Shown here: one piece after another, positions 6,001-9,000 of the stretch
Numbering within the stretch: the first letter of the stretch is position 1
How the letters are laid out: each line of letters opens with the position of its first letter
DNA from: a virus
Taxonomy: Duplodnaviria > Heunggongvirae > Uroviricota > Caudoviricetes
Length of the DNA: 28,831 nucleotides
Virus record (IMG/VR): IMGVR_UViG_2534681660_000015
Direction: 5' to 3' (one strand)
Made by a program: the position numbers

Positions 6001-9000
6001 AAGCCCTGACTGTTCCCGCAGTTGGGGCTTCAACTTTCTGCTCTATCAGTTATATCTTTCCCTTCATATACTTCACCTATATTGCTAATGCTGGCAGAAC
6101 ATCCAAGATGCTTGTATCTTATGATGTCCAACACGCAGTCACTACACAGCATCCGACCTGTTTCTTTAGAGTAAATGTATGTTTGATCAGCGTCTGATTC
6201 GCTAATGCCGCAGAAACAACATTCTTTACTCATACCGTTATCCCCTCTCTCTTCAGGCTGTCCATCACCCGTTTAATTACTTCTGCACTAAATGAGCGAC
6301 ACTCCTCCTTTGCTTTTTCTTCAAGAATTTTTTCTAGCTTCTCTGGCATACGCAGTGTTTTAACCTTCATTGTATCCTCCGTTGTATGTGGTACGCATAC
6401 ATAGTATTTAGGTACGCATTGATAGTCAATAGATACCTACATATCCTGTGGTAAAAAATTATTCAGGATGCGCCGATGTCTGATCGTAAGTACAAAAACC
6501 CTCAAGTGAATCTGAGGCTTCCTGTAGAGATAAAGGAACGTCTTATTGAACTGGCTGAGGCTAATTCTCGTTCATTAAATGCTGAGATGGTCGCGGCACT
6601 TGAAGCGTGGACCGAAAAAAATAAACACATTCAAGCACTAGACCTTGCAACTATAGCATCACGATTGATAGATCTTGAACACGATGTTGAGACGCTAAAG
6701 ACCATGTATGGTAAGGATAAATAAATATGACAGATACCAAAGTGAACTTCAGAGAAACCATCTTCAAGGACTCAAGTGATGCTGTAAATGAGTATGCTGA
6801 TGGATTTGCTTACTCGTCTTTTGGGGATGTCGGAGCAAGATTTGGTTCAATAGCATTTTTTAAGCATGTTTCAGACTGGGTTAATAATGAGGAGATTCAG
6901 CCAGTTAGATACCAAATTGCCAACATTCGCATGAGTGAAAATCAACTTCTTGAACTGGCTAAGTATATAGTTTCTCAACACGAAGAATCAAAAAAATTAA
7001 GCTGACAGAGCCATGATTACTTTTCCTGCCGTAAATGCTGATCATGCAGCGGAGAAAAAGAGAACTCTTGGTCGTATGGGGTCGACAGGTGGCATAGGAG
7101 AAAAGTCCAATGCTTCGCCTCCAGTTACCAAGAATGATATAACCAAAAACAATAATATCGCTTATCTTGGAAAACAATACACTGAGGAGCATGCTATGGG
7201 CAGCCCATCAAGAGAAGAGATTGACGCGAAGCTTGGTCAAAACAAAGCAGAAATTGAGTTAATATCTGCTAACATGCGCGCTGAAATTTCAGCTTTCAGA
7301 GAATTCCAATCTAAGCAATTTACAGCTATGAATCAGTCCCTTAATGAAATTAAGGGACAGATATTCGCTAGCAATGGCGAAGTTGCAGGGCTCAAAGGTC
7401 AAATTGATGGCATTAAAACATCCATGACCGCGACCCAATGGCTCGTTGGTGCGGTTCTCGCTATGCTTGCGGTAATCATAACGCTTCCGCAGATTCAATC
7501 TTACTTCAAGGTTTCTGAGCCGACTGCGAAGGAAGCCGCTAGTGAAACCCATGATACCAAAATAAAGCAGTGATCTTACCAATAAAACCTGGGAGGACAA
7601 CATGAAGCAATGGCTCATCATAATTGCTGTTTTTTTGCTCATTTACACTGTTTTCCCAACATTAAAAGCACCAATGCAAATAATTTCACTAGCAATAATT
7701 GCGATTGGTGCTTTCATTGCTGTAGCCGTACTTGTGTTTAAGGTTTTAAAGTTTTTAGTTTGGCTATCAAAAGATGATGGATGCAAAGTTCATCAAGAAA
7801 AAGAAGGCAAAATAACCAAAGTTGACTAACTGTCACTAGCGAGCCATGTAATAATCCCCGTGCGGGCAATGGTTTTTGCTTCATCTGTTGATAAGGTTTT
7901 CTCCCATCTCTTAAATGCCCCAGATTGCATCAGTTTCCTTTCTATTACGCGTCTCACTTCTGCTCTGTCTACTGGTGCGTTTTGCAGGCGAAATAGCATT
8001 GATTTAAACTCAGGAGAAGACAGTAGAGCATCAGCAGCCTTTATCCTGCTTGTTTTCCCTGACATCAATGCGGACGTTATCACCCCTGTTGCGCCTACAC
8101 CAGGAAGACCAGATAAGCTTGTAATACCTTCCGCCGCAGCAGCTTTTGAGGCTATTCCATAAATTTTTGCGAGACTACCCTTTTCTTTCAGAAAGTTATT
8201 AACTTGCTGATCCACAAGACTACTAGCATACTGCTTACCAGTATTGAGTCTATTCATAGCCTTAGCTGCTTGATAAATCGTATCAAGGCGCTTTGATGCA
8301 TCTGTGCCAATAGCATCACGGAGAGCCTTCATATTGGCCCCATTGCGTGACATTCCGTTATACCATTTTACAAATCCATCAACTCCTAATTGCTGACCAG
8401 GTGATTTGGCATAGCTGGTAAATGCTTTATTCATTGAGGTGAGCGCAACTTCCTGCCGCATATCCTTTGGAATCGACTTCATTAATTGCCTAAAGTCGCC
8501 ACCGTTTCCTTTTGCCATATTAACAACAGCACTTTCAACTTTTGGAATTGCTGATTGCTGAAGTTTTCTACCCAAGACGGTTACAGCATCATCTTCAATG
8601 GATTTTCGTTTTTTTACCAACTCCTTACCAAGCGTCCATAATTCCCCTGCGCCATATTTTTCTGCGACAGCCTGTTGGTCATCTGTTATGGCTGCATATA
8701 ACTTTTTAAGAACACCTGTTTCTTCATCCTTGAATGGACCAGAGCCTTTGCCAATAGCTTGTCCAACCTGCTTTCTAGCGAGATCTAAACGCCCATACGT
8801 TGGCAAGGTGTTTGGATCAAGTCGGTTCAATGTCCGCTTCATTATTGGAGATAATTCATCAATTCCACCTATGTCATCAGCAAAATCCTCTAAAAAATTC
8901 AATGTATTAGTTGCCTCAATCCGGTCTCTTACAGGAACCTTTTCGGCAATTTTGTTGTAGATGTTATCTGACTGATTTTGTAATGATGAAATGGTTTTAT

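Follow-up and report, generated by a model that had tools for sequence, protein, structure and literature searches.

The interval between the Mnt repressor gene and gene 16 holds the superinfection exclusion gene sieA in phage P22, and the locus analyzed here raises the question of what the genes are that fill the equivalent interval in a relative of this phage. The locus lies in IMG/VR record IMGVR_UViG_2534681660_000015, a stretch of 28,831 nucleotides (nt) that as a whole represents a P22-like prophage of Escherichia coli and is referred to below as the window. Three open reading frames (ORFs) occupy the interval on the plus strand, namely ORF1 (6727-7005), ORF2 (7013-7573) and ORF3 (7602-7829), and a first-pass annotation had described them at these coordinates, in the slot that P22 uses for sieA, as a single unrecognised cassette that might serve in exclusion or defence. 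The observation itself was confirmed, and the interpretation placed on it is partly supported and has been refined. ORF1 and ORF2 form a conserved gene pair carried behind prophage repressors of different kinds, and ORF3 is a unit of its own. The coupling of the pair to repressors across unrelated immunity systems, together with its presence in the rex slot of phage HK97, makes it a good candidate for a defence system.

Three genes between mnt and gene 16

The rightward unit opens with mnt (6476-6724, plus strand), which encodes an 82-amino-acid (aa) Arc/Mnt ribbon-helix-helix repressor (Pfam Arc, E 3e-10; phrog_795, E 7e-27) with the PGAP name 'Arc family DNA-binding protein'. Its TAA stop codon (6722-6724) is located 2 nt before the ATG of ORF1 at 6727 and an AAGGA sequence is found upstream, in agreement with the proposed coupling of ORF1 to mnt. 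ORF1, the first gene of the pair, encodes an acidic and soluble protein of 92 aa (pI 5.0, zero hydrophobic segments), ORF2 a 186-aa tail-anchored membrane protein made of a coiled coil with a single hydrophobic segment near its C-terminus, and ORF3 a 75-aa protein with two hydrophobic segments, whose ATG is preceded at 6 nt by GGGAGG. The TAA codon of ORF3 (7827-7829) overlaps the stop codon of gene 16 on the other strand, giving a convergent overlap of 4 nt; gene 16 (7826-9949, minus strand) encodes a 707-aa ejection protein whose homologue in related phages is annotated as 'DNA transfer protein' or gp16. In all of these respects the first-pass annotation was accurate. The window between 6300 and 7900 is 100% identical to the corresponding DNA of E. 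coli O114:H49 90-9280 and of ETEC-2264.

Each of the three products matches a PHROG family of unknown function over its full length (phrog_4231, phrog_5820 and phrog_7294 for ORF1 to ORF3, E 1e-47 to 1e-97). A cassette 60-69% identical to that of the window (locus L006) served as the reference for a codon-position comparison, in which the changes are distributed 24/16/53 over the first, second and third positions in ORF1 and 18/16/42 in the core of ORF2, the third position being favoured in both. This bias and the full-length PHROG matches establish that the ORFs are genuine genes and not chance open frames, and the codon-position pattern indicates that ORF1 and the ORF2 core are under purifying selection; residues 1-61 of ORF2 are nearly unconstrained in the same comparison. 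Several overlapping antisense ORFs (7289-7642, 6959-7192 and others) were rejected as spurious because the codon-position patterns favour the plus-strand frames. The earlier statement that the ORFs belong to no recognisable family stands for curated functional families, as searches of Pfam, NCBIfam and PADLOC returned no functional assignment, but not for PHROGs. None of the ORFs was found to have homology to virion or housekeeping proteins in Pfam, PHROGs, PADLOC, NCBIfam or PDB profile searches, such homology being what the first-pass annotation had named as speaking against its proposal. The cassette had also been described as more AT-rich than the virion genes, which is true of ORF1 (37% GC) and ORF3 (33%) in a window of 46.6% GC, but not of ORF2, whose 43.5% GC is practically that of gene 16 (43.6%).

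The idea of a single three-gene cassette was ruled out by the comparison of genomes. Of 5426 complete E. coli genomes, 34 carry ORF3; ORF1-ORF2 are missing from 25 of these, and the DNA shared with the 25 begins at the ORF3 start codon (window 7603); conversely, Salmonella phage UPF_BP1 has the order mnt-ORF1-ORF2-gene 16 with no ORF3. Among the 45 genomes having this allele of gene 16, 34 carry ORF3. It adjoins gene 16 in phages E212 and EC.P3 as well as in strains 55989 and APEC20/16, in which the contents of the slot differ, with an orf59a homologue and a reverse-strand gene accompanying ORF3 in 55989, a ClpP-like gene in the APEC strain and different genes again in E212. ORF3 is an independent unit tied to one gene-16 allele and not a member of the cassette. 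In an APEC prophage (locus L102), mnt is followed by a gene for a ClpP-like protease (Pfam CLP_protease, E 4e-12) instead of ORF1-ORF2.

The product of ORF3 (phrog_7294, E 1e-50) has two transmembrane (TM) segments and a charged C-terminal tail. No promoter or intrinsic terminator belonging to ORF3 was found in a consensus scan, the sites of which were overall not above shuffled expectation, and a search of PADLOC gave a match at chance level only (E 0.48). When the alleles were compared (window 7602-7710, residues 1-36, against loci L101, L102 and L002), the differences were confined to the first TM segment and comprised 11 non-synonymous and 3 synonymous changes, mostly hydrophobic swaps at the first codon position, with residues 37-75 being invariant.

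A gene pair carried behind prophage repressors

Relatives of the pair were collected from two IMG/VR scans and other look-ups, which yielded 119 loci with an ORF2-family gene, representing 89 distinct DNA regions and 47 distinct protein pairs. A small gene for a soluble protein lies directly upstream of the ORF2-family gene on the same strand in all 119 loci. Forty-four of the 47 distinct pairs are located directly behind a repressor gene, the repressor being CI in 27 cases (by BLAST), another HTH_3/Phage_CI_repr/S24 protein in seven and Mnt in ten; three structural classes are represented, namely LexA-like CI, short HTH CI and ribbon-helix-helix Mnt. The two genes of a pair are tightly packed, with -14 to +12 nt between the ORF1 stop and the ORF2 start in the 15 loci measured (+7 in the window), and mnt and ORF1 overlap in loci L006 and L017. 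In the HK542 record the pair has cI on one side and, on the other, the annotated terminator Timm, which ends the pRM transcript, and a Yersinia lambdoid prophage has the order cI, ORF1 homologue (38% identity, E 3e-18), ORF2 homologue, N. The P22 interval is organised as mnt-orf59a-terminator-PsieA-sieA; ORF1-ORF2 take the position of orf59a within the mnt unit, and ORF3 takes the exact position of sieA, convergent with gene 16. The linkage to repressors suggests that the pairs would be expressed in the lysogen, and it strengthens the idea that they are accessory genes of the lysogenic state.

Additional small genes were seen at some of these loci. In the Morganella loci L011-L013 a 92-aa gene (4702-4980) lies between mnt and ORF1 and a 76-aa gene (5754-5984) between ORF2 and gene 16, the latter place being taken in L017 by a 109-aa gene (5765-6094). 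The 76-aa and 109-aa proteins are unrelated and both have an N-terminal TM segment, so that a small membrane-protein gene beside gene 16 is a recurrent feature.

The pair is related through its second gene to pairs located between cI and N in HK97 (gp49/gp48), in HK542 and HK244 (c105/c104) and in Klebsiella ST15-VIM1phi2.1 (QBP28251/QBP28252). ORF2 is a true homologue of Gp48, c104 and QBP28252, to which it is 35-40% identical and with which it shares the SREE(I/L)DAKL..NKAE core, the juxtamembrane glycines and the QW-TM segment (tblastn E 1e-14 to 4e-15; window-type profile E 2e-25 to 6e-24). The gene order is also alike, with a small soluble protein encoded before a tail-anchored coiled-coil protein, behind a repressor and with tight or overlapping junctions; both marks of a gp48-like module, homology of the second gene and a small soluble gene tightly upstream, are found in ORF1-ORF2. 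The differences concern the repressor and the type of phage, which are CI and siphoviruses in HK97, HK542 and Klebsiella whereas the window has Mnt, and the first genes, since Gp49 (88 aa) and c105 (144 aa) are not detectably related to ORF1. No function was found described, in the literature that was searched, for HK97 gp48/gp49, the HK542 ORFs, their relatives or these PHROGs.

The first genes of the family comprise the types of ORF1, HK542 c105 and HK97 Gp49, a fourth type that is distantly related to ORF1 (hhalign E 4.5e-6), and zinc-ribbon-like cysteine singletons. Kinship of ORF1 with Gp49 or c105 was considered and rejected because profile-profile comparison was not significant (hhalign E 0.15-0.24). 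As judged from these comparisons, a conserved ORF2 core is combined with exchangeable upstream partners, which belong to at least three unrelated types. A single 44.9-kb Klebsiella-type phage contig (IMGVR_UViG_2880028884_000002, loci L033 and L140) carries two modules at different loci, one with the order cI-Gp49-type-Gp48-type and another, elsewhere, in which an ORF1-type gene is accompanied by a 128-aa coiled-coil/TM gene.

Second genes beside ORF1-type partners have either the SREE-type core or the core of the UPF_BP1 type. The latter resemble ORF2 in architecture and in the type of partner, but no homology to the ORF2 core is detectable, as the window-type profile gives no match and hhalign an E of 0.04, and they are called 'ORF2-type' only. 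An N-terminal aromatic/acidic peptide is common to ORF2 proteins that have ORF1-type partners, with the SREE and the UPF_BP1 core alike, and is absent from gp48, c104 and the homologue in Klebsiella, all of which are paired differently. This co-variation of peptide and partner is a post-hoc sign which suggests that ORF1 and ORF2 may be in direct contact.

In ORF2 of the window, the N-terminal peptide (PAVNAD) is followed by a disordered linker extending to about residue 60, the SREEIDAKL..NKAE core, a TM segment at about residues 143-163 (nt 7439-7501) and a 23-aa tail. The AlphaFold model has a single helix at 67-157 that continues into the TM segment, with residues 16-60 and 166-186 modelled at low confidence and taken as disordered; a structure search with this single-helix model gave no meaningful match. 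The most conserved parts are the SREE(I/L)DAKL..NKAE motif, glycines 122, 126, 129 and 133, Q142-W143, and A150 within the TM segment, and the alignment indicates more conservation than a passive anchor would need. The family consists of 182 clusters at 50% identity (E<=1e-3), and exactly one TM segment, preceded by about 140 residues, was found in 134 of 156 representatives; a signal peptide is absent and the tails are P/Q-rich. Since lysine and arginine flanking the TM segment are biased to its N-side (1.83 as against 1.14 on the other side), the coiled coil should be cytoplasmic.

A possible internal start of ORF2 was found at 7184-7198 (plus strand), where GAGGAG is followed after 6 nt by the ATG of Met62 (7196), four residues before the core. 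Met62 is nearly invariant in the close ORF2 family, and of 13 diverse members, 10 have a methionine at a distance of 1-4 residues ahead of the SREE motif, frequently preceded by purine-rich sequence. The conserved methionine before the core is also present in L006, L089, L011, L028, L003, L027 and L031, and the database gene call in L097 uses the Met62 start (125 aa). These features suggest that genes of the ORF2 family may yield a long and a short isoform. A hairpin with 14-nt arms, 93% complementary, and a 3-nt loop is located inside ORF2 (7332-7362, plus strand); it has no T-tract and is not terminator-like.

Two named families resemble ORF2 in their architecture. A protein 99% identical to ORF2 has the PGAP name 'CCDC90 family protein', and ORF2 itself matches the Pfam CCDC90-like family (PF07798) with 21.5 bits (E 2.4e-4), which does not reach the gathering threshold of 33.5 bits. 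Matches to PF07798 at E<=0.01 were obtained for 8 of 17 ORF2-family members (best E 8.6e-6), all of them below the curated threshold (the individual score being given here for ORF2 alone) and covering the stalk and TM segment only. Proteins of the CCDC90-like type are reportedly built of a head, neck, stalk and anchor (Adlakha et al. 2019, cited in PMC7519068). The match of ORF2 extends over profile positions 96-170 of 175, corresponding to the stalk and TM segment and not to the N-terminal head, and the N-terminus of ORF2 is disordered in the model. Like the CCDC90-like/DUF1640 proteins (MCUR1, CCDC90B and prokaryotic members), ORF2 has a coiled-coil stalk that leads into one TM anchor at the C-terminus, and it differs from them in the disordered N-terminus and in a SREE motif of its own; the profile signal indicates resemblance and not membership. 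The likeness to XhlA (PBSX, 'hemolysin XhlA family'), which had been pointed out in the first-pass annotation, likewise consists of a coiled coil and a C-terminal TM segment in a small phage protein, and a protein with the PGAP name 'hemolysin XhlA family' is found in the equivalent mnt-gene 16 slot of another E. coli prophage. No Pfam match of ORF2 to XhlA (PF10779) was obtained at E<=1. XhlA acts with holin and endolysin in a lysis cassette, whereas the lysis genes of the window are situated elsewhere (Rz, 23414-23851).

The ORF1 family consists of proteins of about 90-100 aa from prophages of Escherichia, Serratia, Klebsiella, Enterobacter, Citrobacter, Morganella and Yersinia, and at each of the 45 ORF1 loci examined the next gene encodes a coiled-coil protein with a TM segment at its C-terminus. 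A scan of 185,579 species-representative genomes for ORF1 relatives returned one locus only, in an Arsenophonus metagenome-assembled genome. In the model of ORF1 (pLDDT 73), residues 1-20 are disordered, residues 26-70 form three long beta strands and residues 71-91 make up a helix at the C-terminus. Its best fold match in PDB and BFVD is the PC4 single-stranded DNA (ssDNA)-binding domain, to which Foldseek assigns a probability of 0.95 but an E of only 0.04, with a TM-score of 0.35-0.45; this PC4-like match is weak and may be taken as a lead and not as a result. PDB sequence searches with profiles of the ORF1 and ORF2 families gave nothing credible, and a PDB match at E 1e-4 to a designed PPR protein was discarded because no single stretch of it passes the threshold alone. 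A natural C-to-T nonsense mutation, Q58*, is present in ORF1 of locus L100 (GCA_051218015.1, 3126-3299) with ORF2 intact; gene 16 is broken as well in this prophage.

Possible functions of the pair and of ORF3

The reading that we favour, tentatively and while granting that the chances lie somewhat against it, takes ORF1-ORF2 for a two-component membrane defence module of the Rex kind, expressed in the lysogen, as its context and architecture lead us to infer. ORF1-ORF2 would extend the mnt operon, with Pmnt driving their transcription in the lysogen and their translation tightly coupled to that of mnt, and the module in general would ride on the transcripts of prophage repressors, that is Mnt in P22-like phages and CI in lambdoid phages, in the position of rexAB. 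ORF2 would be held in the inner membrane by its tail anchor, extend its coiled-coil stalk into the cytoplasm and serve as the conserved effector. ORF1 would be a small, fast-evolving and swappable subunit in the cytoplasm that provides specificity or sensing and docks on ORF2 at its N-terminal peptide. Upon infection by another phage, a trigger might travel along the stalk and, by way of the glycine-rich stretch next to the membrane, reach the conserved TM segment, with the outcome that membrane integrity or potential would be lost (abortive infection) or that phage development would be blocked.

The region between arc and mnt (6383-6447, without strand) is, from a consensus scan and a repeat search, a putative divergent promoter/operator region. 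It contains a candidate Pmnt on the plus strand (TTGATA-17-TATCCT at 6419-6447) and, overlapping it, a candidate Pant on the minus strand (TTGACT-17-TACTAT at 6429-6401), both being consensus matches only, from a scan that yields no more sites than shuffled sequence does. A tandem 21-nt repeat resembling an operator, GGTACGCAT..., is found at 6390-6431. The layout resembles the annotated Pmnt/Pant/Oarc/Omnt region of P22. The arc/mnt DNA of the window is 99.3% identical to that of E. coli NRG 857C, whose matching region we take, as an unchecked assumption, to be a Gally-type prophage. Lysogens of the Gally prophage (E. coli LF82) transcribe mnt, with a 40-fold increase in macrophages.

The model for this proposal is RexAB, with which the pair shares a soluble protein gene followed by a membrane protein gene, co-oriented and joined downstream to a prophage repressor gene, an arrangement found in the 44 repressor-linked pairs; the ORF2 family also fills the lambdoid cI-to-N slot, and the logic of a cytoplasmic sensor and a membrane effector would be common to both. 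RexA is a protein of about 279 aa and RexB has four TM segments. Here the soluble protein is of about 90 aa, and the membrane protein differs from RexB in its single C-terminal TM segment and long coiled coil. Models of RexA and RexB gave no match to the ORFs in Pfam and PADLOC scans (E<=1). The cI-N region is a recognised mosaic hotspot, and the genes of known function in these slots, rexAB, bstA and sieA, are anti-phage genes.

Several findings weigh against a defence module. The proteins have no similarity to RexA/RexB, SieA, BstA or the PADLOC models, and position is the main argument; in PADLOC-DB v2 (5027 models) no match was found for ORF1, ORF2 or the HK97 Gp49, Gp48 and HK542 c105 proteins, and c104 gave a match at chance level (E 0.013). 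No recognised repressor lies upstream in 3 of the 47 pairs, and a K. michiganensis prophage has the pair in a moron island of the tail region, beside a YafO toxin gene. The pair is rare, being found in 9 of 5426 complete E. coli genomes. The fold of ORF1 is modelled with moderate confidence and has weak matches only, the single long helix of ORF2 by itself says little about a pore, and the motif of the N-terminal peptide is a post-hoc one, drawn up with the sequences already in view.

Superinfection exclusion at the step of DNA entry, in the manner of SieA or Imm, is the alternative that survives best, although we consider it unlikely; ORF2 and/or ORF3 would in this case reside in the inner membrane and block the ejection-protein conduit or the DNA translocation of incoming phages without killing the cell. 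As sieA is present in only 22 of 66 P22-like phages, other exclusion genes are to be expected in its slot, and the case draws further on the position and gene-16 allele of ORF3 and on the small membrane-protein genes beside gene 16 in Morganella (76 aa) and L017 (109 aa). The cassette lies between gene 16 and the tailspike gene (2949-4988, minus strand), beside mnt, arc and ant, and thereby has the location that characterises SieA in P22-like prophages, flanked by homologues of gene 16 and gene 9. Slot and orientation are shared with SieA, which is also an inner-membrane protein of a P22-like prophage. SieA is, however, a single protein (about 164 aa) that has a promoter to itself and, by a reading of its sequence, several TM segments, and a relationship was rejected since BLASTP against P22 SieA gave no match for ORF1, ORF2 or ORF3 at E<=10. 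The cytoplasmic motif FxRYPxEAxxFNK conserved in the SieA family (PMC10883804), which occurs in P22 SieA as FGRYPGEANGFNK, is absent from the three ORFs. The pair is moreover common to podoviruses and siphoviruses, whose injection machineries are unrelated, ORF2 is predicted to be mostly cytoplasmic, and a soluble partner is always needed.

ORF3 for its part, which in the favoured reading too would be a separate small inner-membrane protein, is most simply seen as an exclusion candidate of the SieA or Imm kind, possibly with a role tied to the gene-16 type. T4 Imm and the class II holins are proteins of about 70-85 aa with two TM segments and a charged C-terminal tail, all of which they have in common with ORF3. 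ORF3 differs from them in that it has no family match, is opposed to the late operon and lies far from the lysis cassette. Its substitutions, mostly non-synonymous and confined to the first TM segment, make selective constraint doubtful.

A membrane-tethered regulator of the prophage is a rather improbable explanation, in which ORF2 would hold ORF1, perhaps a protein that binds nucleic acid, at the membrane in an anti-sigma manner or the pair would tune the lysogeny-lysis switch or the timing of lysis. The pair is encoded together with repressors that control lysogeny, and RexA/RexB provide a precedent, RexA being described as a DNA-binding protein that biases the lambda switch. The PC4 match of ORF1 would fit a regulator, but it is weak and no DNA-binding family was detected; the possible dual starts of ORF2 recall holin/antiholin pairs. 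A conserved regulatory target is hard to reconcile with the replacement of the first gene by unrelated proteins, the module moves among phages with unrelated immunity systems, and the slot is dispensable, as many P22-like phages with a near-identical mnt do not have the pair.

Lysogenic conversion, by which a stress-related tail-anchored system of ElaB/YqjD- or CCDC90/MCUR1-like architecture would aid survival of the lysogen, is more doubtful again. The tail-anchored coiled coil is consistent with such a system, as are the steady sub-threshold CCDC90-like similarity and the induction of the Gally mnt region in macrophages. The Pfam matches, however, stay below the curated cut-off and within the stalk and TM segment; the module is confined to prophages, with the one match among the species-representative genomes, and the quick turnover of the partner gene suggests an arms race over housekeeping physiology. 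Least probable of all is a toxin-antitoxin-like addiction module in which ORF2 would be a membrane toxin and ORF1 the upstream antitoxin that together stabilise the prophage, for although the two small genes are tightly coupled in the order soluble then membrane, the second protein may plausibly be membrane-active and the K. michiganensis copy lies beside the YafO gene, the same second gene is paired with unrelated first genes, no toxin-antitoxin family was matched in Pfam, NCBIfam or PADLOC, and the ORF1 Q58* mutant has an intact ORF2 (a single case, in a decaying prophage).

Remaining features of the prophage and significance of the family

The integrase gene lies at 1-1152 (plus strand) and is followed by a 441-aa ORF with no Pfam match (1567-2892, plus strand), which is located between integrase and tailspike in the position of the P22 O-antigen conversion genes. 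In the immI region, ant is found at 5089-6033 and arc at 6230-6370, both on the minus strand, and the sar antisense RNA at 5969-6035 on the plus strand; since sar was matched over its full length in the Rfam scan (RF00262, 71.6 bits), the immI region (mnt, arc, sar, ant) of this prophage is complete. A 67-aa ORF of the CxxC..CxxC zinc-finger-like type (6030-6233, minus strand; phrog_7150) lies between arc and ant, and its counterpart in the APEC prophage L102 is named 'ClpX C4-type zinc finger protein'. Genes for tRNA-Thr(tgt) and tRNA-Asn(gtt) are located between the Q antiterminator and the lysis genes, with an int-alpA small RNA match (Rfam 41 bits, gathering threshold 35.8) further downstream (24873-25028 and 22580-22642, both on the minus strand). 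Just downstream of Rz, a 159-aa ORF (22856-23335, minus strand) has a Tad2-like (Thoeris anti-defence 2-like, PF11195) domain with an E of 6e-22, and this similarity makes it a candidate counter-defence gene of the phage.

The mnt-gene 16 interval itself was already known as a variable 'ant moron' or immI accessory slot. Prophage repressor operons are a proven source of defence systems, as in the cases of RexAB, BstA and SieA, and many occupants of their slots are unnamed. What is new here is that one such occupant belongs to a coherent family, distributed over P22-like podophages and HK97- and lambda-like siphophages across the Enterobacterales, in which the membrane subunit is conserved and the partner subunit is swapped. 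A bolder proposal, which we put forward with correspondingly greater reserve, is that ORF1-ORF2, HK97 gp49/gp48 and the HK542, Klebsiella and Yersinia versions may together represent an unrecognised, widespread and modular anti-phage system carried on CI and Mnt repressor transcripts, in which a conserved, tail-anchored coiled-coil effector in the membrane would be armed by small interchangeable sensors that attach to its N-terminal peptide. It would be a functional analogue of RexAB made of altogether different proteins. HK97, HK542 and the P22-like prophages are tractable laboratory systems for this family. Should the defence reading be false, the family would be a conserved unknown that is presumably expressed while these prophages are silent. 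If it is true, the pair would bring a new defence architecture that acts at the membrane and a clear example of sensors being exchanged while the effector stays fixed, and it would account for the occupant of the rex slot in the classical phage HK97.

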